58,528 nucleotides of DNA, from the NCBI GenBank assembly GCA_964019425.1, contig OZ025785.1, positions 1,674,001 to 1,732,528 on the forward strand, written 5' to 3'. Of the stretch, positions 26,501-58,528 are shown piece by piece. The notes under the pieces were generated by a model, which did not search any database, was not told where the DNA came from, and saw nothing but the letters and a program-made list of their open reading frames with translations. This DNA comes from Flectonema sp. DT1601. Taxonomy: Eukaryota. The translations under genes were made by a program, and so were the position numbers. Within the stretch, counting starts at the first letter, position 1. Every line of letters starts with the position of its first letter.

Positions 26501-26672
26501 AGGAAATTTAATGAAAGCCACAAGATGGAGAACAGCAGGGAGGAGGGGGTTCGTTGGGGGGAATAATGTGTTTTGTTTTATTGGGACCCTGAGTACGAGT
26601 GATTGGTGTATTGTTGTAATTATCTTTTTTATTTCCACAGGCAGCCGTATCGAAAAGTTCTAAACCTAAATC

Positions 26673-27605
26673 ATGTTCTGGACAACGTTAACGCCGTGGG
26701 AGTCCGAGGAGGAGATCCAACGCGGTGTTGGGAATGAGAGTGGGAGAGGCACCAGTAAGCACGGTGCCTCTCCCAGAAGGGAGCATCAGAGACGGAGAGA
26801 GTCTCAGGAGAGGGAACGAAGGGACTTGCTTCGGGGAGTGAAGGACGCGATTCGTGTTTCGGAAGATCGGGAGCAGCCGGAGGAGCAGCCATCGTTGGTG
26901 CAGCCACTACTACTACCACAAGAACAAGAAGAACATCAACAGCTACAGCATCAACAGCAGCAGCCGTCACTACCACTACCGACGTTATATCGACCAACGC
27001 AGCAGGGGGCGACTTCGACATTACAACATCAGCAACCTCAGCAAGAACAACGTAGAGGGCAACAACTGCAGCAAGAACAACAACAACAACAACCACTACT
27101 ACTTCAGCATTCAGTACCTCAGCCGCTCACATCACAGCGTGTTTGGGGCGAACCACTGGCACAACCACAACCACAACCACAACCACAAGTACGTGCATTG
27201 TCGCTGAGCCATCCACAAGCGATGATGCCAAACAGACAACCGCGGAGTTCATTCCGAGACCGGATGACCACCGACGCACCAACGGATGGCGACTTCTTCG
27301 TGAGACAGCTTTGTGCATGTCTTCTCGCGACAGTTATTTTGTTGTTATGTGTTGTTTATTTTGCTCGTGCGAACCCCAAAGTCGTTGAAGGATTCGGGGC
27401 TTTTTTTTCCGTTTTTCTTTTCGTAGCGAAATTGTACATTTCTCTTTTCCCTCCTCCTGTACTGATCATTGCGGTGATCAGTAGTTGGTACACGTCTACC
27501 GATTGGAAGGAATTTTTGTTTCGCTTGTGTACTTTTCCCATCCAGGTAGTCGTCTACCTGGGGGGAGTAAGTGGATTGCTGGGAAGTCGCCAGGTTAAGA
27601 AATGA
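26673..27605 (+). CDS. Hypothetical 310-aa Q-rich membrane protein, copy 7
   Basis: Translation identical to copy 1. Confidence 0.7.
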   Translation: MFWTTLTPWESEEEIQRGVGNESGRGTSKHGASPRREHQRRRESQERERRDLLRGVKDAIRVSEDREQPEEQPSLVQPLLLPQEQEEHQQLQHQQQQPSLPLPTLYRPTQQGATSTLQHQQPQQEQRRGQQLQQEQQQQQPLLLQHSVPQPLTSQRVWGEPLAQPQPQPQPQVRALSLSHPQAMMPNRQPRSSFRDRMTTDAPTDGDFFVRQLCACLLATVILLLCVVYFARANPKVVEGFGAFFSVFLFVAKLYISLFPPPVLIIAVISSWYTSTDWKEFLFRLCTFPIQVVVYLGGVSGLLGSRQVKK

Positions 27606-30600
27606 TCTGAACCATCTCCACCTTGGGTTCGAATTGTTTTTGGATCGACTTTTCATCTTCTTCATCTTGTTGTTGTTTTTTTGATATTCCCTTCGTTTGT
27701 GTTGCTCTCGTCACTCATTGGCTCTTGTTATGCCAGAACATTAAAAAAAAAAAAAAAAAAAAAAAAGAAGTATTAATCGACTTGTTTTTCAGTTCTTTTT
27801 AATTTTTATATAAACATTGCACGCAGGGATTGCTCGGAGTAACTTCACCCATTTGAAAATCTCCTGGCAACCCCTGCGTGCATTGGGGTTTTGGGGTTCT
27901 TTTTTCTTTTGTACAAATAACCGGAAGTCATTTTCACCTAATTTAATATCTTCCGGGTACTGCTTTAATTTGTTCTGTTTTGTTAATTTTCTTGAAAAGA
28001 ATACTTGCCCTCCATAATAGCGACTGTACTTCCTGTCTCGATCGTCCAATCCCACACCCAAACCCATAGCCACCAAAAAAAATAAACAAATAAATAATAG
28101 TAATTAAAAAAAAAAAAAACTTCACCGACCATTCTTCATGTTTTTTCTCAATTTCGCACATCCCAATCTCTGCCCCTCTTTTTTCAGGTGTACAGTCGCT
28201 GAATGAATATTAGTGTCTTGCCTTTTCCTTTTTTTTAATTTTAATTTTAATTTTAATTTTTTGTTTTTTTTCAACACACTCGCAAGTAAAAACCCTTCTT
28301 CCCTTTCCTCATCGTTGAGTAACTTTTCACACTCACTCACCGTTTTAATCTCATTAGGGTGGAGGGGGGAATACTTGCACGGAGAGTTTACCTTGATATT
28401 CATTTTAGTTTTTACACGCAATGCTTCACTTTTCTTAATTGGGTGGTTGTGTATGTTTTTTTCTCGTAAGGTTGGAAAGAAAGGAAATTGTCCGATTTTC
28501 CGTCGGTTGGTGTGTCTGTGGAAAGATTTGTTTTGTTGGAGGAGGTTGTATGTTTCCTTTTCTGGTTTTCTGGTTTTCTGGTTTTCTTTTTTTTTTTTTT
28601 TTTTGTGAGATGTGGTTTTTAGGATGTTTATTTATCTTTTTTTTTTTTTTGGGTGTCCTTGTGTTGGATTCCAAAATGCAAATTAAGTAAAATAAAATAA
28701 AATGAATTCCTTTTTCTTTCTTTCTTCTTCATTCTAATCAGTCCAGTGACCGTTGGTCCTGTCTTGATTAGTTTTGTGGTTGTCAGAAAGAAGTGACCGT
28801 GTTCCCTTTTGCCCCCGTGTTGCGGGAGGTTTGTTTCTGTTTTATATTTTTGGGAAAAAGAGATGAAACCTAAGCTGTGGCAGCGACCTTTTTCTTTTCT
28901 TCAATTTGATTCTTTCATTTTGACTTCTGTTTGTGTGATGTGTCACAACAACTGAGAGGAGCCAACCTGTCAGTGTTGTTGTGTATTCCGCAGACGGATT
29001 CGATTCCATCTCATTTTGGAGATGAGAGAGATGGGAGTCGATTATATTTATTTGGGTCTGCTGTTAGCACAGTTGTACTCTTTTTGTGATTTCATGTATC
29101 TTGTTGGTCATGTCTGCTTTGCTTGGTTTCATCTGCTTCTGCGCGGTCCGAATTCAAGACTGCTGCTTGTTGGGTTTAGAGCAGTGGGTCTAATTAATAG
29201 TTGATAATAACTTGTTGAATGTGTGTTCCCATTATTTATTATCATCATCATCGTTCTTCCCTCAGTTCCTCTGCGAAGTCGCGGAGGGGTATGAGGAAAA
29301 TGATAAATGTGATGATGATGATGAAAATGATGGGTTTTTCTTGAAAACATGTGTATTCCCTGCTTCTGTGGGTGTTTGCTTTGTTTTCTTCCCTTTCCGT
29401 TGAATATTAATTTACACTATTCTTTTCCTTTTTCCTTTTTCCTTTTATTTTTCTTTCTTGTGGGTTGTTGTTGTTATTGTTAACATTATAGTGCACAACA
29501 CAACACAACCCACAAAAACACATGCTCTCTCTCCTTCCTGTCTTCTTCTTCTTCATGTCTTCTCATGTATGTTGAAGTGTTAGGTTGGAGGGAAATCACC
29601 ATCTGGCTTCTCGTTCTTCGTTTCCTCCGTTTTCGGAGTGGTTGAAGGAGAGGCGATTAATCCTTTTTTTAGGCTAATGTCCTTGTTTTGAGTTCTGTTT
29701 TGTTTTGTTTTTTTAGTTTTTTTTATTTTCATCAGTTCAGTTTATATCGAATATTTGATTGTTAGTTTTTGAGAAGTAAATGTGTTTTGAGTGATCTCCG
29801 TTGAAGATAGAGATCGTTGTAAAAGTGTTTTCTTTTTTTGTTTATTTTACCGTTGATGTGCCTTTCTTGGACAGCTTCGGGTGCATACAACCGACTCCTT
29901 CATTTTTTAATCTTCTTCAGCAATACCCTTCCTTTTGTTTTTTAATTGTAGCCTTACATTATCATTACACCAACCTCCCCAGTTGAAGCATTGCAATTTT
30001 TAATTTCCAAAAGAATATCTGAATCTGTGAAAGTGTGTTGGGTCCTTTTTTGTTTTTATTTTTATTTTTATTTTAATTCCATCTCTTTTTTCCTTCAACC
30101 GTTTATCCTCGTTTTTCTCTTTTCGAGTACAGGATAAAGAAGGAAGTGAAGTGATGGCGATGAGGCAAGGAATAAAGTGTTTTTCTTAAAAAAAAATAAA
30201 AATAAGGCAAGTAACATGGGGGAAACTTTCCCTGTGTAATCTTCAAAAAAATAAAAAAAAAATAAAAAAAAGGGGTTCCACTCCCCGCTAATCAAAAAAA
30301 AAACAAACAAATACATACATACATACGTACATAAATAAAAAAAAACAACCAAGAAAAATAAAAATAATAATAACAAACAAAAAAATATAAATAGCAGGGG
30401 AACCTCCCTGTGAAAATAAAATAAAAAAAAAATACAAAAAAAGGGTTCCACTTCCCTAATAATTGATGTGTCTCAAAACGTTTGTTGATGTTGTTCAGAT
30501 TATTGTCTTCTACAGGTTCAGGAAATTTAATGAAAGCCACAAGATGGAGAACAGCAGGGAGGAGGGGGTTCGTTGGGGGGAATAATGTGTTTTGTTTTAT

Positions 30601-30691
30601 TGGGACCCTGAGTACGAGTGATTGGTGTATTGTTGTAATTATCTTTTTTATTTCCACAGGCAGCCGTATCGAAAAGTTCTAAACCTAAATC

Positions 30692-31624: not shown

Positions 31625-33317
31625 TCTGAACCATCTCCACCTTGGGTTCGAATTGTTTTTGGATCGACTTTTCATCTTCTTCATCTTGTTGTTGTTTTTT
31701 TGATATTCCCTTCGTTTGTGTTGCTCTCGTCACTCATTGGCTCTTGTTATGCCAGAACATTAAAAAAAAAAAAAAAAAAAAAAAAGAAGTATTAATCGAC
31801 TTGTTTTTCAGTTCTTTTTAATTTTTATATAAACATTGCACGCAGGGATTGCTCGGAGTAACTTCACCCATTTGAAAATCTCCTGGCAACCCCTGCGTGC
31901 ATTGGGGTTTTGGGGTTCTTTTTTCTTTTGTACAAATAACCGGAAGTCATTTTCACCTAATTTAATATCTTCCGGGTACTGCTTTAATTTGTTCTGTTTT
32001 GTTAATTTTCTTGAAAAGAATACTTGCCCTCCATAATAGCGACTGTACTTCCTGTCTCGATCGTCCAATCCCACACCCAAACCCATAGCCACCAAAAAAA
32101 ATAAACAAATAAATAATAGTAATTAAAAAAAAAAAAAACTTCACCGACCATTCTTCATGTTTTTTCTCAATTTCGCACATCCCAATCTCTGCCCCTCTTT
32201 TTTCAGGTGTACAGTCGCTGAATGAATATTAGTGTCTTGCCTTTTCCTTTTTTTTAATTTTAATTTTAATTTTAATTTTTTGTTTTTTTTCAACACACTC
32301 GCAAGTAAAAACCCTTCTTCCCTTTCCTCATCGTTGAGTAACTTTTCACACTCACTCACCGTTTTAATCTCATTAGGGTGGAGGGGGGAATACTTGCACG
32401 GAGAGTTTACCTTGATATTCATTTTAGTTTTTACACGCAATGCTTCACTTTTCTTAATTGGGTGGTTGTGTATGTTTTTTTCTCGTAAGGTTGGAAAGAA
32501 AGGAAATTGTCCGATTTTCCGTCGGTTGGTGTGTCTGTGGAAAGATTTGTTTTGTTGGAGGAGGTTGTATGTTTCCTTTTCTGGTTTTCTGGTTTTCTTT
32601 TTTTTTTTTTTTTTTGTGAGATGTGGTTTTTAGGATGTTTATTTATCTTTTTTTTTTTTTTGGGTGTCCTTGTGTTGGATTCCAAAATGCAAATTAAGTA
32701 AAATAAAATAAAATGAATTCCTTTTTCTTTCTTTCTTCTTCATTCTAATCAGTCCAGTGACCGTTGGTCCTGTCTTGATTAGTTTTGTGGTTGTCAGAAA
32801 GAAGTGACCGTGTTCCCTTTTGCCCCCGTGTTGCGGGAGGTTTGTTTCTGTTTTATATTTTTGGGAAAAAGAGATGAAACCTAAGCTGTGGCAGCGACCT
32901 TTTTCTTTTCTTCAATTTGATTCTTTCATTTTGACTTCTGTTTGTGTGATGTGTCACAACAACTGAGAGGAGCCAACCTGTCAGTGTTGTTGTGTATTCC
33001 GCAGACGGATTCGATTCCATCTCATTTTGGAGATGAGAGAGATGGGAGTCGATTATATTTATTTGGGTCTGCTGTTAGCACAGTTGTACTCTTTTTGTGA
33101 TTTCATGTATCTTGTTGGTCATGTCTGCTTTGCTTGGTTTCATCTGCTTCTGCGCGGTCCGAATTCAAGACTGCTGCTTGTTGGGTTTAGAGCAGTGGGT
33201 CTAATTAATAGTTGATAATAACTTGTTGAATGTGTGTTCCCATTATTTATTATCATCATCATCGTTCTTCCCTCAGTTCATTGATTGGTTTATTGATTTC
33301 CCAACACAACCCCTAAA

Positions 33318-35027
33318 ATGAAAGTACAGCCGGTCGGGTCTCTTGATGAGGCCCGATTGTTGTCCCTCTTCAGGAAATTCCTGAGTGAGGAACTGAGTGT
33401 TGAGAAGAAGAGAACGAAGAAGAAGAAGGGAGAGGCGGAAAAAACAGAAGCCAAGTGGCAAAAAGTTAGAGGTCCGCAAAAAATAGAAAGCTCAGCGAAG
33501 AGAACAGCCATTGCTCCGGGTAAGAAGGACGGATACTATGGCGCCTTACTGAATACGGCGAAGAAGCCTGATACGAAGTCGACCCAGCAGATTAAGACCC
33601 CGCTGATTAAGACACCTCCGTTAAAAACTCTGCCACCTTCATGGCAGAACATCACTTTACGACCAGAAGACTGGGTTTTACCGGTTGTCACCGCTACGAC
33701 AGCCTTCTCGAGTATTAGCAATACCTCTGGTATTTTTATTTGTAACCCAGCAGACGCAGTCCTGGCGTCTCGCAAACAAGGTGACTTTTCAGTCATCACT
33801 CACAAACAGTTGGAAGGTAGCACTCGGCTGACTTTTCCAATAACCATTAACGGAAAAACGTCGTCGCGTACTGGTTGGATCTCGTCCTACGGCAGCACGA
33901 AAGCCCCTCTCAGAACCCAACAGAAGTCTGAGAGAAACGTTAAAAATTGCGTAGTGTTATTTCACGCGCATAAATCTTATTTTGCGGAGAAGGTGGAAGT
34001 CACTCCGGACTTTCTGATGACACGCGCACGAGCAGCATACCTCAGTGCGTTCGGCGAAGAGATCGACAGTCACCTGGTGTGGCCATCAAAACAGAGGGAA
34101 ACCTCTAATAAAATTAGAACGGTGAACATGCGAATTCCGTGTACGCGCGTTCACAAGCTGTCGTTTGAGGTCACAGTCAACGGCCCAGACGGGTATTTTG
34201 TCACATTGCCGAAATTTACCCAGGACAGTATAGATGCAAAATTAAGCATCATCATGCTACAGACAAACGATCTTCAGCAGGCAAAAAACATCGGGAAGTC
34301 CCTCAACTCTCCGGTGACTTTCTTACGTGGTACAAACAAACTAGGAATAATCTGTTCGGCATCAATGACTGACCAAACACGTTCATCGCTTGGAGAGCTC
34401 GCATGTCCTGCTCCACCGGTAGGAGAAAAATACAGAATCTCTGGTGATCATGTGGGCCGCCTTTCTCGGAGCCAACTATGGCAGATCTGTAATAGCCATG
34501 GTTGGGAAATTTCGACCTGCACACACTTCAGCAGGAAAAATTCGAAGACGAACATGAGGTCTAGTCATTGTATAGTAGTGGCACGGACGTCGCCTCCCAG
34601 CTCGGTCCTGTGGGCTGATGACTTCTTCATCACAGTGAATGCTGTGTCTTCAACACTTCCAACGCAGAAAGATTTCCCGGCCTTGGGAAAGTCGGATGGG
34701 GATGTGGCAATGGATAATAACAGCCAGTGTTACAAAACACCTATTGACACGCCGATTGGAACCCCTTTACAACTCCCTAGTCAGCCCTCTGAGCCTTCCA
34801 ATGCTGAGATCATGCAGCAACTGCAGACGCTCAACCTTACCATAGATGGATTACGAAGGGAACTGGCCGCGGAGAAAGAAGCAAATCAGAAACTTAGAGA
34901 TAAACTGGGTAAATCCAACAAAGATCGCGAACGCCGCAGCGGTAGAGATTCCACCGACCAGCGCCCTCGGGCCAACTCTCACGCTGATATGGCGGCTCAA
35001 CTGAAGCACAACCAGTCAGCCCAGTAG
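33318..35027 (+). CDS. LINE ORF1 protein (569 aa): basic N-terminus, C-terminal coiled coil
   Basis: First long ORF of the element. It has a K-rich N-terminal region and the heptad-like IMQQLQTLNLTIDGLRRELAAEKEANQKLRDKL. No clear CCHC knuckle. It ends in TAG in frame with ORF2. Confidence 0.85.
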   Translation: MKVQPVGSLDEARLLSLFRKFLSEELSVEKKRTKKKKGEAEKTEAKWQKVRGPQKIESSAKRTAIAPGKKDGYYGALLNTAKKPDTKSTQQIKTPLIKTPPLKTLPPSWQNITLRPEDWVLPVVTATTAFSSISNTSGIFICNPADAVLASRKQGDFSVITHKQLEGSTRLTFPITINGKTSSRTGWISSYGSTKAPLRTQQKSERNVKNCVVLFHAHKSYFAEKVEVTPDFLMTRARAAYLSAFGEEIDSHLVWPSKQRETSNKIRTVNMRIPCTRVHKLSFEVTVNGPDGYFVTLPKFTQDSIDAKLSIIMLQTNDLQQAKNIGKSLNSPVTFLRGTNKLGIICSASMTDQTRSSLGELACPAPPVGEKYRISGDHVGRLSRSQLWQICNSHGWEISTCTHFSRKNSKTNMRSSHCIVVARTSPPSSVLWADDFFITVNAVSSTLPTQKDFPALGKSDGDVAMDNNSQCYKTPIDTPIGTPLQLPSQPSEPSNAEIMQQLQTLNLTIDGLRRELAAEKEANQKLRDKLGKSNKDRERRSGRDSTDQRPRANSHADMAAQLKHNQSAQ

Positions 35028-35033
35028 CAATCA
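35022..35033 (+). promoter_or_regulatory. Candidate stop-codon readthrough signal CAG-TAG-CAA-TCA (UAG-CARYYA type)
   Basis: ORF1 stop TAG (35025-35027) is followed by CAATCA, which matches the tobacco mosaic virus readthrough consensus CARYYA. The frame stays open into ORF2. Confidence 0.65.
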
Positions 35034-35072
35034 ATCGCTCCCATTCCTGACAACATATTTCATGAAACAGTA

Positions 35073-35123
35073 ACAGCCCGTATTAACCTCTTACGCTCAG
35101 GGATCCACCCTAATCCTGGGCCT
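35073..35123 (+). other. 2A-like (StopGo) peptide motif TARINLLRSGIHPNPG|P
   Basis: In-frame translation of the inter-ORF region. NPGP is at 35112-35123, directly before the APE motif LRVLSWN. It departs from canonical D(V/I)ExNPGP (G for D, H for E). Confidence 0.65.
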
Positions 35124-38100
35124 CTTAGGGTACTCTCATGGAATATGAGAGCTTATAAAACATCGCGCTCACATCTTGATGCTATTATCGAAGCTCACGA
35201 CCCTGATATTATCCACCTCCAGGAAACTTGGTTGAAAGCAGATGTAACCGATGATCAACTTGGGATTACAGGATATTCATTATTCCGCCGCGATAGGTGC
35301 GACTCTTCTAAAATGGGAGGTGGTGGACTTCTTTCTTATTTCAAAAAGTCTCTTGGTACGGTCCAATTAGAAGTAGGTAAGCATCCATCCGCTGTTGAGG
35401 TTATCCATTGCAGTTTCTCGACTTCCATGGGCATATTTAGAACTTTTAATATTTACATCCCACCGAAGGTGTGCCAGCTGCCCTCTTCTATGTTTTTGGG
35501 GGATCTAGCAGTAGGTGATTTCAATGCACATCATGAATCTTGGTCGCGTCGAATTCCTAAGGGATGCGTCTCTTCAGGAAGGATAGTAAATGAATGGATT
35601 ATAAATAATGGATTAGCTATTGAACCTCTGGCTCCTTCTATTCCTGCTCATGGTACAACGCCCGATTTATTATTGCACTCGCCGCAGTTCAAGTGTCTGC
35701 GTTCGCTGCAGATTGATGCTGGGCAAGTTAATTCCGATCATACCCCAATTGTTGCAGATTTTAATGTGACTCCCCTCACTGTACCGGTAGCTATTCCGGC
35801 TCATCGTATATGGTTCAAAAACAGTTTTACGGAATCTCATTGGTCCTCCTTCTCCGCACAACTTGACTCCCATTGTTTTAGACTTAATAGGATACGATCT
35901 TTAAATAAACTCTGTGACAGTTTTGTTCGAACAATAGAATCTGTTGCGATTGATACTCTTCCAAATAAGTGGCACAAAGAATCTTTCCGGGTTAAACGCA
36001 AACATCGCCATTTGGACCCTGAACTTATTCTAATCGACGGTTGTAAGAAGGGCTTTAGCTGGACTTATAAGAAATTACGAGAACTGAAAGGAGAGTCAAC
36101 GGTTATTGAGACCCCGCAGGTGAACGTCGGAGCGCTCAAACGTCGCTTTTTCCCTGATTCTTCTGACAATCGTCCCTTGCTTATTCCGCATACTTCAAAG
36201 GTAGATTTTTCAGAACCCAGTTGCTCTCCTTTTACAATGGCAGAGGCCCAAGCAGTTTTTAATTCTTTGAAAAAGTCTGACGGCTCCGGTCCGGATTCTA
36301 TAAGTAACAACATGATTTATCATTTTGGAGATATGGCTAAGGAAGTTCTCCTACGTATTGCAAACTGGTCTTTCCAGAGAGGAACCTTCCCGAAATGTTT
36401 GAAAGTAGCACATGTTCTCCCTATTCTAAAAGGTAGCAAAAAGGACCCGACTGATGCCGCCTCCTATCGTCCTATCTCTTTGACCTCAGTAGTTGCTAAA
36501 TTCATTGAATCCCTTGTCCATTTTAGATTAGAACATCTGCTGATTTCTAAACTAGACCCTAAACAATCTGGGTTTGTTCCTGGTAGGTCAGCGGAGGAAA
36601 ATATAGCCGTTATGATCGAAGCTGCAGCTGAAGTTAAAAACAATTATGAGAAATGTGCAACGATGATTTTCTTCGATATCTCGGGTGCGTTTGATAATGT
36701 GGATCACCATATTCTAATGAGTAGGCTTACAACACTCATCCCAGTCCCTTATGTAAGGTGGATTGGTAATTTCCTCTCGGACCGAGTAGCGCATCTTCTC
36801 CACGGCCATAACCGTACAGGCCCGATTTCTTGCAAAAAGGGGGTCCCACAAGGCAGTATTCTAGGACCGCTCTTATTCCGTGTGTACGTGAACTCCCTAC
36901 CGGATGCCATCACAGCCGATTTAAAGCTGTTATACGCGGATGACTTGACAGTGTTTGTTAGTGGCTCTTCGGTTAGTGATTTGGAATCCAAGGCGAACAA
37001 TGCCATTGGACAAGTGGAGAACTGGCTCGCTGATTCAGCAATGTCCCTCTCTCTGAACAAGACTGAATTTTTGGCATTCGGAGGACGTTTCTCAGACAGA
37101 AGTATTTGTAGACTTCCAAGACTTTATTTTCCCTCTACGGTGGACGATATCGACCTTCCCCGTGGCTCTGCCGACTTCATCAGGATACATCAGGATGATG
37201 GTGCCGCAGCTCTGCTCAATTTCAAAACAGGACCGGTATACCCACTTGCAATTAATGGTAACTACCTTGAGACCCGCTCTCAACTTTCACAAAGGACGCC
37301 AAAGGGTTCTTTCGTTCTAAAGGCTGCAATCCCTCTAAGGCGTGTGTCGCAGTCGCGGTATCTTGGCATAATTATCGACGATGATTTATCTTTTACATCG
37401 CAGTTAGCTCACCTATCAAATACCCTAAAGCGGGGAATCGGCTTGATTTCGATAGTTTCATCTTTTAAAATCAAAACGGAAGTTCTCCGACAAACAATCT
37501 ATGGGCTGATCCTCTCTAGGGCCTATTACGGACTAGCTTCTTATGCACCCTATATCAAGCAGAATTCTTTGAAACTTATTGAGAATACACTTCGTTCACT
37601 TCAACTAAGACTGACGGGATGCTCCAAATCGACCTCCTCAACTGCATTATCGGTAGAATCTAGTATTCCCCCGTTCAAACTACACGTGGCTAAAGTCCTG
37701 GCTTTATCCTACGAACGTTTCCTGAGGCTCCCAGACGATTGCCCGACTCGGTCGTTGGTTCACCCTGAAAAGTCTAGCTCGTGGAAACTGTACGCAGAAC
37801 CCCATGCCAAGACTTATGTGACCCCTAATGAAAGATCAATGCTCTGCCTACCGCATCACCAGACTCCTTGGGGACCACCCCCGGATGTTATTATCAATTC
37901 CTGGGCAGATTTCCGTAAGTCCATGGACCCATGCAAGAATTTGTTAGCTGCACTTGGAAAAATTAAGACCCTCCCAATGTCAGTGGCCTCGCTGTATACA
38001 GATGCTTCCTACTTCCAAGATAAAGAAAGTAACTACCATTGTGGTAATGCAGCAGTTTTAATCTTTGGAAAGAGATGCATCAAAGAAATACATCGTTACG

Positions 38101-39152
38101 ACCCATCTTTGATGATTTATAATGCCGAGCAACAGGCTCTGTTATCAGCAGTGAATTTGATTGAAAAGTATTCGTCTTGCCTGCCAAGTGGGAGGATTAA
38201 TATAATCACGGATAGTCAGTCAGCACTTCGAAGTCTTGAGCGTGGACATCTGAAGCAACATTCAGCGACTAATGCCGAATTATTGAGGAGAATATCGCTG
38301 CTCCAGCGTCCGATCACCCTACAATTTGTCCCCTCACACTGTGGGATCATCGGAAATGAAATGGCCGATTCTCTCGCCAACAAAGCAGCGGCTTCTGCTA
38401 TTCCCTTAACAGTGGTCAAGTTTGACTACAGGATGACCCAATGTTCAGTGAATAATAAAATCCGAAGAAACTGGTACGAGCAGCGCAGTACGTCACATGT
38501 GCACTCTTTATCGACAATGGGCAGAGGTGCTCAACGCTTCCACCCGGATCTTAACCGTGAGGGAGAAATGCAAATCGCCCGCCTCAGGACTGGACACCAT
38601 CCGCTTGTGAAGCAACCAAGAAAGGGATTATCAAACTGTCTCTTCTGTAATAAAAGAGATACAGATACTCACCATTTACTATCGAAATGTCCGGAGACTA
38701 AGATGTTTGTTCAAATTCACTTCCCACAGATGGTATTTAATGATCAAGATGAGGATGTGGGTCAACATCTACACAAGTTTTTTGCTACTGAAAACCAGTT
38801 GGCTCTCATATCGCTCTTGAATGACCTCCGGAGCCTACACGACAGCTTCCCGTTACGTCGAGCGGTCCCTCGACAACGCCTTGTCAAATATTTGTCCGTT
38901 CATTCCACTGTTACCACACTTGATTCGAAGTGTAAGGAGGAAGTCAGAAAACTGATCTCAGAAGTTTATAACGCAAATGAAATCGAAAAAGTCTACGACC
39001 ATTTGTGGGACTTGGAGTTATACTGTTTCTTGAATTCGGATAAAAACAAAAACCAACATTTTAATTCATTCCTGGAGAAGATTAGGTCTTCTAAATTTAC
39101 TCGGATCGATCCAGTGTGGTTCGATTCAAATAAATGGCTGCTGCCAACCTAG
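35121..39152 (+). CDS. LINE ORF2/Pol: AP endonuclease, reverse transcriptase, RNase H, CCHC zinc finger (first ATG 35145; frame open from 35028; predicted 2A-released N-terminus at Pro 35121)
   Basis: APE motifs: LRVLSWN, LQETWL, NIYIPP, GDFNAHH, SDHTPI. RT motifs: YRPISLTS, QSGF, FFDISGAFDNV, GVPQGSILGP, YADD (36933-36944), YLGI. RNase H motifs: YTDAS, AEQQA, ITDSQSA, VPSHCGIIGNEMAD. Also IARLRTGH and C-x2-C-x8-H-x4-C (38637-38690). Confidence 0.95.
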   Translation, partial: PLRVLSWNMRAYKTSRSHLDAIIEAHDPDIIHLQETWLKADVTDDQLGITGYSLFRRDRCDSSKMGGGGLLSYFKKSLGTVQLEVGKHPSAVEVIHCSFSTSMGIFRTFNIYIPPKVCQLPSSMFLGDLAVGDFNAHHESWSRRIPKGCVSSGRIVNEWIINNGLAIEPLAPSIPAHGTTPDLLLHSPQFKCLRSLQIDAGQVNSDHTPIVADFNVTPLTVPVAIPAHRIWFKNSFTESHWSSFSAQLDSHCFRLNRIRSLNKLCDSFVRTIESVAIDTLPNKWHKESFRVKRKHRHLDPELILIDGCKKGFSWTYKKLRELKGESTVIETPQVNVGALKRRFFPDSSDNRPLLIPHTSKVDFSEPSCSPFTMAEAQAVFNSLKKSDGSGPDSISNNMIYHFGDMAKEVLLRIANWSFQRGTFPKCLKVAHVLPILKGSKKDPTDAASYRPISLTSVVAKFIESLVHFRLEHLLISKLDPKQSGFVPGRSAEENIAVMIEAAAEVKNNYEKCATMIFFDISGAFDNVDHHILMSRLTTLIPVPYVRWIGNFLSDRVAHLLHGHNRTGPISCKKGVPQGSILGPLLFRVYVNSLPDAITADLKLLYADDLTVFVSGSSVSDLESKANNAIGQVENWLADSAMSLSLNKTEFLAFGGRFSDRSICRLPRLYFPSTVDDIDLPRGSADFIRIHQDDGAAALLNFKTGPVYPLAINGNYLETRSQLSQRTPKGSFVLKAAIPLRRVSQSRYLGIIIDDDLSFTSQLAHLSNTLKRGIGLISIVSSFKIKTEVLRQTIYGLILSRAYYGLASYAPYIKQNSLKLIENTLRSLQLRLTGCSKSTSSTALSVESSIPPFKLHVAKVLALSYERFLRLPDDCPTRSLVHPEKSSSWKLYAEPHAKTYVTPNERSMLCLPHHQTPWGPPPDVIINSWADFRKSMDPCKNLLAALGKIKTLPMSVASLYTDASYFQDKESNYHCGNAAVLIFGKRCIKEIHRYDPSLMIYNAEQQALLSAVNLIEKYSSCLPSGRINIITDSQSALRSLERGHLKQHSATNAELLRRISLLQRPITLQFVPSHCGIIGNEMADSLANKAAASAIPLTVVKFDYRMTQCSVNNKIRRNWYEQRSTSHVHSLSTMGRGAQRFHPDLNREGEMQIARLRTGHHPLVKQPRKGLSNCLFCNKRDTDTHHLLSKCPETKMFVQIHFPQMVFNDQDEDVGQHLHKFFATENQLALISLLNDLRSLHDSFPLRRAVPRQRLVKYLSVHSTVTTLDSKCKEEVRKLISEVYNANEIEKVYDHLWDLELYCFLNSDKNKNQHFNSFLEKIRSSKFTRIDPVWFDSNKWLLPT

Positions 39153-39315
39153 CGTTAATTGTTAATGCTCTACGAGTGCTTTAGTATATTATCAGTGTAA
39201 TTGTTCTATCCCGTTTTAATTTTGATGATTTTTATTTATTTATTATTAATTTTTTTTATTTTATTTTATTTTATTTTTATTTTTATTTCTTTTATTTTAG
39301 TTCGATAGTTTAATA

Positions 39316-39461
39316 AGCTAGGCGAGGCGGAAAGCTGGAGATTGGTATTTATTAATCTTCAGTCGATGCTACTTCAACAATCCATGCGAAATCTTCGGAT
39401 ATGGCTACGGATTGGGTCCTCTGTTACTGTGAGTTACCTAGCACTCATAATATACAGTAAC
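39316..39461 (+). other. Structured LINE 3' UTR (several stem-loops)
   Basis: CTGGAGATTGGT/ATTAATCTTCAG (39335-39362); CAATCC/GGATTG (39378-39414) enclosing ATC-TTCG-GAT; GTTACTGT-GAGT/ACTC-ACAGTAAC (39423-39461). Confidence 0.6.
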
Positions 39462-39472
39462 GTTGGATTAAA

Positions 39473-39493
39473 TAACTAACTAACTAACTAACT
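39473..39493 (+). repeat. (TAAC)5 3' tail of the LINE
   Basis: TAACTAACTAACTAACTAACT immediately before the right TSD. Confidence 0.9.
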
Positions 39494-40921
39494 AGTTCCT
39501 CTGCGAAGTCGCGGAGGGGTATGAGGAAAATGATAAATGTGATGATGATGATGAAAATGATGGGTTTTTCTTGAAAACATGTGTATTCCCTGCTTCTGTG
39601 GGTGTTTGCTTTGTTTTCTTCCCTTTCCGTTGAATATTAATTTACACTATTCTTTTCCTTTTTCCTTTTTCCTTTTATTTTTCTTTCTTGTGGGTTGTTG
39701 TTGTTATTGTTAACATTATAGTGCACAACACAACACAACCCACAAAAACACATGCTCTCTCTCCTTCCTGTCTTCTTCTTCTTCATGTCTTCTCATGTAT
39801 GTTGAAGTGTTAGGTTGGAGGGAAATCACCATCTGGCTTCTCGTTCTTCGTTTCCTCCGTTTTCGGAGTGGTTGAAGGAGAGGCGATTAATCCTTTTTTT
39901 AGGCTAATGTCCTTGTTTTGAGTTCTGTTTTGTTTTGTTTTTTTAGTTTTTTTTATTTTCATCAGTTCAGTTTATATCGAATATTTGATTGTTAGTTTTT
40001 GAGAAGTAAATGTGTTTTGAGTGATCTCCGTTGAAGATAGAGATCGTTGTAAAAGTGTTTTCTTTTTTTGTTTATTTTACCGTTGATGTGCCTTTCTTGG
40101 ACAGCTTCGGGTGCATACAACCGACTCCTTCATTTTTTAATCTTCTTCAGCAATACCCTTCCTTTTGTTTTTTAATTGTAGCCTTACATTATCATTACAC
40201 CAACCTCCCCAGTTGAAGCATTGCAATTTTTAATTTCCAAAAGAATATCTGAATCTGTGAAAGTGTGTTGGGTCCTTTTTTGTTTTTATTTTTATTTTTA
40301 TTTTAATTCCATCTCTTTTTTCCTTCAACCGTTTATCCTCGTTTTTCTCTTTTCGAGTACAGGATAAAGAAGGAAGTGAAGTGATGGCGATGAGGCAAGG
40401 AATAAAGTGTTTTTCTTAAAAAAAAATAAAAATAAGGCAAGTAACATGGGGGAAACTTTCCCTGTGTAATCTTCAAAAAAATAAAAAAAAAATAAAAAAA
40501 AGGGGTTCCACTCCCCGCTAATCAAAAAAAAAACAAACAAATACATACATACATACGTACATAAATAAAAAAAAACAACCAAGAAAAATAAAAATAATAA
40601 TAACAAACAAAAAAATATAAATAGCAGGGGAACCTCCCTGTGAAAATAAAATAAAAAAAAAATACAAAAAAAGGGTTCCACTTCCCTAATAATTGATGTG
40701 TCTCAAAACGTTTGTTGATGTTGTTCAGATTATTGTCTTCTACAGGTTCAGGAAATTTAATGAAAGCCACAAGATGGAGAACAGCAGGGAGGAGGGGGTT
40801 CGTTGGGGGGAATAATGTGTTTTGTTTTATTGGGACCCTGAGTACGAGTGATTGGTGTATTGTTGTAATTATCTTTTTTATTTCCACAGGCAGCCGTATC
40901 GAAAAGTTCTAAACCTAAATC

Positions 40922-56859: not shown

Positions 56860-57107
56860 TGGAGAGCAGCAGGGAGGAGGGGGTGGAGGGAAAGGAGAAA
56901 AGATAACTTTTGCGAGTTTACGGGTTTACGGGGAACGTAAGTTAGGGGAAATATGTGTTTTGTTTTATTAGGACCCTGAGAACGAGAGACTGGTGTATTG
57001 TTGTAATTTTCTTTTTTATTTACACAAGCAGCCGTATCCAAAGTTCAACACCAATCATGTTCTGGACGACAACTGCAGTCTCGAATAAGTTGGATGTTGT
57101 TAGTTAG
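56860..57107 (+). pseudogene. Diverged terminal unit with a truncated remnant of the 310-aa gene
   Basis: The upstream region is homologous but carries many substitutions and a ~50-nt insertion. The acceptor CCACAGG has become ACACAAG. ATG TTC TGG ACG ACA (MFWTT) is at 57057, homology is then lost, and a TAG follows after 16 codons. Confidence 0.75.
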
Positions 57108-57250
57108 ATATGAATATCATTTCGCTCACAGATAATCGCAGTCCATTTTGAGACACTAAAAAAAGCTTATGCGTGGTGTCTGCAGCCGTGTAATTTCTAA
57201 GCCAAATATCGCAATCTATTTTCCCACAGGGACCTGTAGCACAAAACAAA

Positions 57251-57544
57251 ATGTCCACCTCAAGTCAAGGTGTTCAGCCTGCTGAGAAAGATACAGAGAG
57301 AGCATATCTAAGACTCTTGGACGTGAACACAATGGCGATTGCTGTAACTAACGAAGAACTCGACAAACTCGGCAACATTGCTGTAAAGTCGGAAGAAGCC
57401 TTAACGGGTGATGAGATAACCTTCAAGAACAAATGCCTTTTCCTTTCTGGAACTCTCGAACGTCATAAAGAGAAACTCGGGAACGCATTAGTGGAACAGA
57501 AGGAGGAAAGAAACAAGCTGCTTGACTTGTTGAATACTTCTGAG
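57251..57544 (+). CDS. Exon 1 (98 aa, helical/coiled-coil-like) of a putative HNH-nuclease gene
   Basis: TTTTCCCACAG (AG 57228-57229) lies upstream of the ATG. Protein-like composition ends at ...NTSE, followed by GAG|GTATAC and a T-rich stretch. Confidence 0.6.
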
Positions 57545-57797
57545 GTATACCTTTTACTTTTTGTTTGTAACGCATTTCGGGGGAAACCTGTCTGAACGGG
57601 TCCAACCTTTTTTTGTATTGGTCACATACCTTTTTACTTTTTCTTTGTGTACCTTTACTTTTTTTCTTACACATGTATCGAGGTTCAAAAAGCAATTTCA
57701 GAGAAAAGGTTAAGATCAATCAGTACAGATAATGAACCTTGTCTGAACGGGTCCAACCTTTTTTTGTGTTACTCACCCAATAAATCAATCCAAACAG
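57545..57797 (+). other. Putative 253-nt phase-0 GT-AG intron
   Basis: GTATAC...CAAACAG. Removing it joins exon 1 in frame to a 243-codon open frame. It contains a 28-bp direct repeat (57589-57616, 57740-57767). Confidence 0.55.
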
Positions 57798-58528
57798 AAA
57801 ACACGCAACCAAACCGAACATGAATTGCCAGAAGGTTATGAATTGGCACCGGTATTGCGTGCGAGAGGAATCGACCCCACCATATTTAACCGATCACGCA
57901 CTGCATCCACAAAAGCAACAGATCTTTGGCCCTCCTTGATTCCAAATAAATGCGAAGTCTGCGGGGCTACTGAAGGGGTTACTCGTGCCCATATTATTCG
58001 TGAGAGGAATGATGCTAAGCGACTGCAGTTAGACTATGACTCTAACAAGAATGTTCTCTTACTTTGTGGGACTAGGGATACATATCGGTCAAAGGATCCT
58101 CCGAAATCTTGGAAATGCCATGCGATGTTTGACAGAATGATAATGTCATTTCTGCATGTACCTAATGATGAAACCCAGACACAGTTTATTGTGATTGGAG
58201 GGCCTCATAACGGCAAGGTGGTAACATTCTCCCGCAGTCCACACCGACGTGCGATACATTCTCATTTTGAGCATTGTCGTTTGAATAATAGTTTCCGTCT
58301 TGCAGGGGACATAACCGTGAGGCTAGGGACAGAGGACATGAAACCAACAGACCAAACAATTCAGAACTGGGCCGCCAATGTTACCCCTACTGATGGTCCC
58401 ACAAAAATAAAGGAATCCAAGAAACATGAGGAGAAACGGGTGGATCCCAGCGACCCATCAGCAGGGAAGTTCACTTACAAGGAGTTCATCAACTTCTATG
58501 GTCAGAAAGATGGGGCTGCTACATGGAA
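57798..58528 (+). CDS. Exon 2 (runs off the window): HNH endonuclease-like domain (HNH_2-type) plus C-terminal motif
   Basis: Manual translation has no stop over 243 codons: KTRNQTEHEL...CEVCGATEGVTRAHIIRE...DSNKNVLLLCG...KCHAMFDR...PHRRAIHSH...EKRVDPSDPSAGKFTYKEFINFYG. It is absent from the ORF track, probably because it has no stop in the window. Confidence 0.7.

Follow-up and report, generated by a model that had tools for sequence, protein, structure and literature searches.

How the second open reading frame (ORF2) of long interspersed nuclear elements (LINEs) is translated is an open question (PMC3894237). A 2A-like peptide placed before the APE endonuclease is established in the Ingi/L1Tc elements of trypanosomatids and in other clades, mostly in elements without an ORF1 (PMC3708506, PMC3894237). 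Some LINEs combine an ORF1 with a 2A, namely CR1-26_BF, CR1-53_BF and CR1-1_LG, where the 2A is located in ORF2 upstream of APE (PMC3708506), and elements of Cordylochernes, where it is located between ORF1p and ORF2p domains (PMC13405545); these belong to other clades, and the available parts of both reports describe no leaky in-frame stop for them. In Group 3 of the elements lacking long terminal repeats (non-LTR) in Paramecium tetraurelia, ORF1 and ORF2 lie in one frame, and stop readthrough was proposed from the sequence (PMC5405496). Here, a LINE was analysed in a 58,528-nt stretch of Flectonema sp. DT1601 (assembly GCA_964019425.1, contig OZ025785.1, positions 1,674,001 to 1,732,528 of the forward strand; hereafter the window, with positions counted from its first base and all element features on its plus strand). 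Its ORF1 and ORF2 are separated by a candidate leaky stop of the tobacco mosaic virus (TMV) type, and a 2A-like peptide follows directly before the endonuclease.

The element is complete, spans 33280-39493 (6,214 bp), and shares with Ingi/L1Tc the order APE, reverse transcriptase (RT) and RNase H, the 2A-like peptide directly before APE, and a target-site duplication (PMC3708506, PMC3894237, PMC12278014). However, Ingi/L1Tc elements are described in the available text of these sources as having a single ORF and no ORF1, a 77-nt Pr77 signature at the 5' end and a poly(A) tail, whereas the window element carries a 569-aa ORF1 that is in frame across the stop and has homologues in related elements, a 38-nt 5' untranslated region (UTR) in a copy that may be 5'-truncated, a (TAAC)n tail and a 2A core with the variants G and H. 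No Rfam match was found in the window. Because an ORF1 is present and the described ends are missing, the element was not filed as Ingi. Paramecium Group 3 belongs to a ciliate clade, and the available text on it mentions no 2A, RNase H or type I stop context (PMC5405496). The type I readthrough sites of tobamoviruses, pomoviruses and Providence virus match the junction in the nine-base signal, in the Gln before the stop and in the polymerase downstream, but the viral products are fused, whereas the present element is a LINE with CAG instead of CAA before the stop and with a 2A that would then separate the polymerase (PMC3542737, PMC13517186). Each signal singly has already been reported in LINEs, and a readthrough stop and a 2A in series were not found in the literature, subscription journals and Repbase aside. 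The novelty expected in the original prediction for this locus therefore stands for the series of the two signals and not for readthrough in a LINE, which had already been proposed for Paramecium.

ORF1 (33318-35027, ATG at 33318) and ORF2 were found in one frame with a single TAG (35025-35027) between them, after which the frame is open for 1374 codons up to the TAG at 39150-39152. Positioned in frame between the two ORFs, the stop has the context CAG TAG CAA TCA (35022-35033), which fits the type I consensus for readthrough, UAG-CAR-YYA (PMC3542737, PMC13517186). UAG-CAA-UYA is found naturally in pomoviruses (PMC3542737), and UAG-CAR-YYA functions in plants, mammals and yeast without downstream structure (PMC13517186). 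This fits the absence of a strong fold, as no convincing stimulatory RNA structure was detected in four folding windows (z of +0.17, -1.85 with 9/200 shuffles, -0.82 and +0.15). CARYYA was counted in 8 of 1943 in-frame codon pairs (0.4%) and follows 2 of the 283 stop triplets in the element, the ORF1 stop among them, and the joint pattern of stop plus 2A appeared in none of 100 shuffled versions of the window. The codon preceding the stop is CAG, compared with CAA in TMV. In TMV, the ORF upstream of the leaky stop also ends in Gln.

The first in-frame ATG downstream of the stop is located at 35145 (Met40 of the ORF2 frame), inside the APE endonuclease domain (35133-35741; Pfam PF03372, E 2e-10, with alignments to solved AP endonucleases). 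The Pfam match starts at residue 36 of the ORF2 frame, and the S-W-N motif, also upstream of Met40, corresponds in alignments to the first strand in the solved structures of AP endonucleases and ExoIII. A product started at Met40 would be without this first strand and its conserved Asn, so the ORF2 protein (Pol) must be entered upstream of Met40, where no usable ATG is present in the window's family. Two further ATGs between the stop and 35145, at 35062 and 35138, are out of frame and form an obstacle to a scanning ribosome. The shared frame, the single stop with its context, and a first ATG lying after the first APE motif had all been pointed out in the original prediction, and were confirmed by the sequence and its translation.

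Between the stop and the endonuclease, a variable linker of 11 codons (35028-35060) is followed by the 2A-like peptide (35061-35123), which has 20 residues up to NPG and then the Pro at 35121. The G|P site (35120/35121) lies 31 codons past the stop, and a product started at this Pro would have 1343 aa. Two further families were found with ORF2 58% (sister family) and 52% (third family) identical to the window ORF2. The 20-mer is 19/20 identical to that of the sister-family record P0135, against 58% over the whole ORF2; an identity of 19/20 is reached in 12 of 1341 windows along the alignment, and of the nine residues just before the 2A only two are shared with the sister family. Conservation of the NPGP region amid diverging surroundings, which the original prediction had proposed to look for, was observed. 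It strongly suggests, as far as sequence comparison goes, that the 2A is translated and selected, and a constraint at the RNA level may be an alternative cause. Since a 2A acts as a nascent peptide and the 20-mer is conserved, the linker before it would be translated as well.

The core of the peptide, GIHPNPGP, departs from D(V/I)ExNPGP at two positions (G and H). Compared with the wider form (D/G/C/N)(V/I)ExNPGP, it fits except for H at p14, which is listed as a rare functional variant. Leu-Leu is present at -10 and -11, as expected of the conserved tract upstream of 2A cores, where a leucine bias has been reported (PMC13405545). In natural viral contexts, G at p12 and H at p14 were each associated with >95% skipping, and the viral dataset contains 10 rows with GIHPNPGP and 5 rows with GVHPNPGP (PMC12846837). 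The peptide G(I/V)HPNPGP was absent from the supplements of PMC13405545. Among the matches listed in two ORF2 searches, 39 proteins have a 2A-like core within their N-terminal 300 residues; H for E (DIHPNPGP, GIHPNPGP) is common among the LINE 2A-like cores in these matches, though rare in the viral listing.

The stop is shared across the family. The copies and relatives were compared as protein records, in which neither the type of stop codon nor the bases following it are visible, and ORF1 ends at the same Gln in all seven other contigs with an intact ORF1 end (P0164, one contig; P0165, four; P0166, one; P0168, one). Two of the six ORF1 cluster members are broken fragments, and ORF2 was called from Met40 in seven contigs. 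A fused ORF1-ORF2 protein was found neither among the 15 cluster members nor among the 120 of 488 matches listed (755-2405 aa). The exact proteins of the window are absent from the protein collection, so the window element is a further copy. The ORF2 of the family copies differs by 3-10 residues, or about 1% or less in protein, which together with the target-site duplication and the tail indicates a young family, recently copied and spread with the stop in place.

Evidence from the other families was more mixed. ORF1 records P0170, from the Flectonema neradi transcriptome (39% identical, with completeness of its C-terminus assumed from the alignment), and P0173, attributed to the third family by indirect pairing (28% identical), end in Gln, and the fourth ORF1, P0174, ends in Lys. 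Two of three related ORF1s therefore end in Gln, and the chance of at least two of three is 0.013 if they are independent. The ORF2 partner of the Flectonema neradi ORF1 was not among the matches listed, and the ORF1 of the sister family was not identified. For ORF2 of the third family, the QET motif lies upstream of the start in each of the six N-terminal records seen, so this family also seems to be without an ATG ahead of the endonuclease.

For the window's family, the following route is proposed. At the TAG, translation would end for most ribosomes, with release of the 569-aa ORF1p, and the minority that continue through UAG-CAA-UCA would then skip at G|P, freeing a 601-aa extended ORF1p and a separate, Pro-started APE-RT-RNase H protein of 1343 aa. 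The ORF1p:Pol ratio would then depend on readthrough, and the release of Pol from ORF1p on the 2A; the distance of 31 codons from stop to skip is close to the 30-residue length that has to occupy the exit tunnel for a 2A to act. Readthrough of the ORF1 stop is considered fairly probable, because it explains at once why the frame is shared, why CARYYA follows the stop, why ORF1 ends in Gln and why an AUG is missing. Skipping activity, given that the linker is translated, can be expected with good confidence. For the two steps in succession, the balance is about even. Somewhat more tentatively, and a little short of even, the families may represent a small clade of probably diplonemid LINEs in which a TMV-type leaky stop meters Pol entry and a 2A about one exit-tunnel length downstream separates Pol.

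Several observations weigh against this route. A stop common to 99%-identical copies reflects inheritance and is no proof of selection on CARYYA, and the codon before the stop is CAG, whereas the stimulating form has adenosines just before the stop (PMC3542737). The probability for the terminal Gln was calculated post hoc and on lineages that are not independent, being related, and in the third family an ATG would be missing by chance in about 30% of cases. The sister-family ORF2 records P0002, P0135, P0136 and P0142 start from a Met that precedes G|P by 29-30 residues, and this Met aligns with linker codon 3, which is ATC in the window. An M set by the gene caller at a start may also stand for TTG or GTG; P0002, however, carries two Mets, of which the second at any rate must be ATG, and the Met aligned with codon 3 is a true ATG in that record. 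On the assumption of colinear linkers, TCA has ATG, GTG or TTG as its counterpart in P0002, none of which is YYA. The chance of a Met in an 11-codon linker is about 16%. The diplonemid relatives P0004 and P0005 also carry a Met before the 2A. Regarding the 2A itself, very low activity accompanied E-to-H at the core in a LINE of the Crack clade (PMC3708506), and of 580 retroelement contigs only 43 carried a highly active 2A, the scores of most retroelement 2As being mid or low (bioRxiv 2026.09.24.754024); the present core is a G plus H double variant, and no assay of that combination was found. No second instance of the cassette was recovered in pattern scans, though the scans did not return the window's family either.

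Part of these observations would be explained by termination-reinitiation, in which the ribosome would restart two codons past the TAG, on AUG in the sister family, and in the window element on the near-cognate AUC (35034) or some other codon; the 29-residue leader would then be trimmed by the 2A, as in L1Tc/Ingi, and CAATCA would be incidental. L1 ORF2 tolerates the loss of its AUG. SART1 is a described case of reinitiation and mammalian L1 a proposed one (PMC5972666), and the mechanism agrees with the true Met of the sister family at the aligned codon, with the Met ahead of the 2A in diplonemid relatives, and with the near-cognate codons ATC, ATT and ATA at linker codons 3, 6 and 10 of the window. 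However, the window's family has no AUG and the records of the third family suggest the same, and three coincidences would be needed, namely the same frame, CARYYA (0.4%) and the terminal Gln in related ORF1s. Reinitiation explains the sister-family Met but leaves frame, CARYYA and Gln to chance; it is considered less likely than readthrough followed by skipping, yet is a serious rival. The succession of readthrough and skipping put forward in the original prediction thus gained from the shared stop, from the 2A conservation and from the finding that TAG is not a sense codon, while the in-frame Met at codon 3 of the sister family keeps termination-reinitiation alive.

Readthrough could also be followed by weak skipping, in which case Pol would mainly be a 1944-aa ORF1-Pol fusion, or the peptide would mostly stall and lower the output. 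The double-variant core and the low activity in the Crack element are in line with this, and many retrotransposon 2A-like peptides cut protein abundance in a reporter screen (PMC13405545), but the 19/20 conservation across families and the high activity of the G and H variants, each in natural contexts (PMC12846837), make such an outcome improbable. ORF2 might instead be made from a processed RNA, through spliced-leader trans-splicing or cis-splicing at the AG of CAG/TAG that removes the stop. The nearest named relatives are diplonemids, in which a spliced leader is added to almost every mRNA (PMC10161547), and an acceptor at the stop would put the Met of the sister family a few bases downstream. 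Against this, no pyrimidine tract precedes these AGs (48% pyrimidine, 10% T, 31st percentile of the element's AGs), and trans-splicing there would leave the window's family without an in-frame AUG before the endonuclease, so that processing is regarded as very improbable. Finally, the TAG is one change from CAG, and a 2A between ORF1p-like and ORF2p domains in one protein has been reported in Cordylochernes (PMC13405545), as would suit a single-ORF element with a private nonsense mutation, or a host that reads TAG as Gln. The private mutation, which the original prediction had named as its main threat, fails because the same terminal Gln is found at all seven other intact ORF1 ends, and related ORF1s likewise form proteins of their own. 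TAG as a Gln sense codon was rejected, being confined to the two ORF ends of the element against 73 Gln codons CAA/CAG, with 0 TAG against 45 Gln in the ORF of the surrounding tandem array. Both versions are considered extremely unlikely.

If readthrough followed by skipping is correct, the junction would chain two recoding mechanisms in one transposon and would be a distinct route to LINE ORF2 translation, in effect a natural version of the readthrough-plus-2A reporter design. It would also be a snapshot of the transition from two-ORF LINEs to single-ORF, 2A-bearing Ingi-like elements, and it bears on the proposal that the 2A replaced ORF1 as a brake on ORF2, since the Ingi-like architecture here keeps both. 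The cassette measures 100 nt, and the sister family with its linker Met gives a natural comparison.

The ORF2s from two Diplonema species are 25% identical to the window ORF2. In a quick RT tree of 62 rows, which held no labelled clade references, the three families were placed together (Shimodaira-Hasegawa-like approximate likelihood ratio test, SH-aLRT, 100) beside these two diplonemid elements (91). Judged by such relatives, the host is probably a diplonemid-like euglenozoan. The N-terminus of P0004, from the Diplonema ambulator transcriptome, contains three NPGP/HPGP motifs with the start of the APE domain repeated, and its first Met is only 14 residues before the first G|P.

The cassette pattern scans gave 20 matches (metagenomes 8, searched for TAG with gaps of 45-75 nt only; viral TAG 1, viral TAG with longer gap 0, viral TGA 7, viral TAA 0; prokaryote genomes 4), of which one was in frame, at a bacterial locus with a 2-codon upstream frame and no upstream ORF. 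Nine of the 20 match loci were searched by tblastn, and none matched ORF1 or ORF2. A search for related loci with the three-family alignment gave 67 pattern matches in genome contigs and 98 in viral contigs, with 0 confirmed in either set. One metagenome contig (L008:1496-1595) encodes a class B-like 2A of the W-x-x-DLTEEGIEPNPGP type with a frame of 1465 codons behind it, and this locus is probably a virus-like polyprotein unrelated to the LINE.

For ORF1, no Pfam match was obtained, and a search of the ESM Atlas gave scores only up to 0.82. An RRM-like domain was predicted at residues ~367-452 in a low-confidence model from 5 sequences (mean predicted local distance difference test, pLDDT, of 60.8), and its best comparison, with a qRRM, was borderline (Z 8.3, root mean square deviation 2.6, 78 residues aligned). 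A long C-terminal helix or coiled coil was predicted at residues 495-541.

In ORF2, the APE domain is followed by the non-LTR RT domain (36438-37076, with YADD; Pfam RVT_1, E 1e-36), the order of an APE-type LINE according to Pfam and PDB sequence alignments, and then by RNase H (37989-38390; Pfam RNase_H, E 1.2e-9) and a C-terminal CCHC motif (38637-38690), which is kept in the sister family and in the third family. An insertion of about 90 residues at ~37100-37350 breaks the end of the RT domain, and P0004 as well as the sister and third families have similar stretches there. The ORFs are bounded by the 5' UTR (33280-33317) and by a 3' UTR of 341 nt (39153-39493) with (TAAC)5 at its end. The 3' simple-repeat tail, the absence of LTRs and the target-site duplication are likewise those of a LINE. 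The duplication (AGTTC, 5 bp; left copy 33275-33279, right copy 39494-39498) was recognised from a 5-base overlap of the flanks against an intact array unit.

The element sits inside one unit of a 4.0-kb tandem array. About 13 near-identical units, with a period of about 4.01-4.05 kb (e.g., 26670-30688), were found across the window (1-58528), and the 11 units compared are 98.9-100% identical. Each unit encodes a 310-aa Gln-rich ORF with a hydrophobic C-terminal part and no Pfam match. Immediately before the insertion point, a pyrimidine-rich tract (33245-33279, 76%) ends in CAG and resembles a splice acceptor; given the 38-nt 5' UTR, this LINE copy might obtain a leader from the host array. 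The array ends at ~57050-58528, where the ORF of the last unit breaks after a few codons near 57060 and a different sequence begins. Beyond this end, open frames were observed at 57194-57595 and from 57747 to the end of the window, and the sequence there may be a second insertion.

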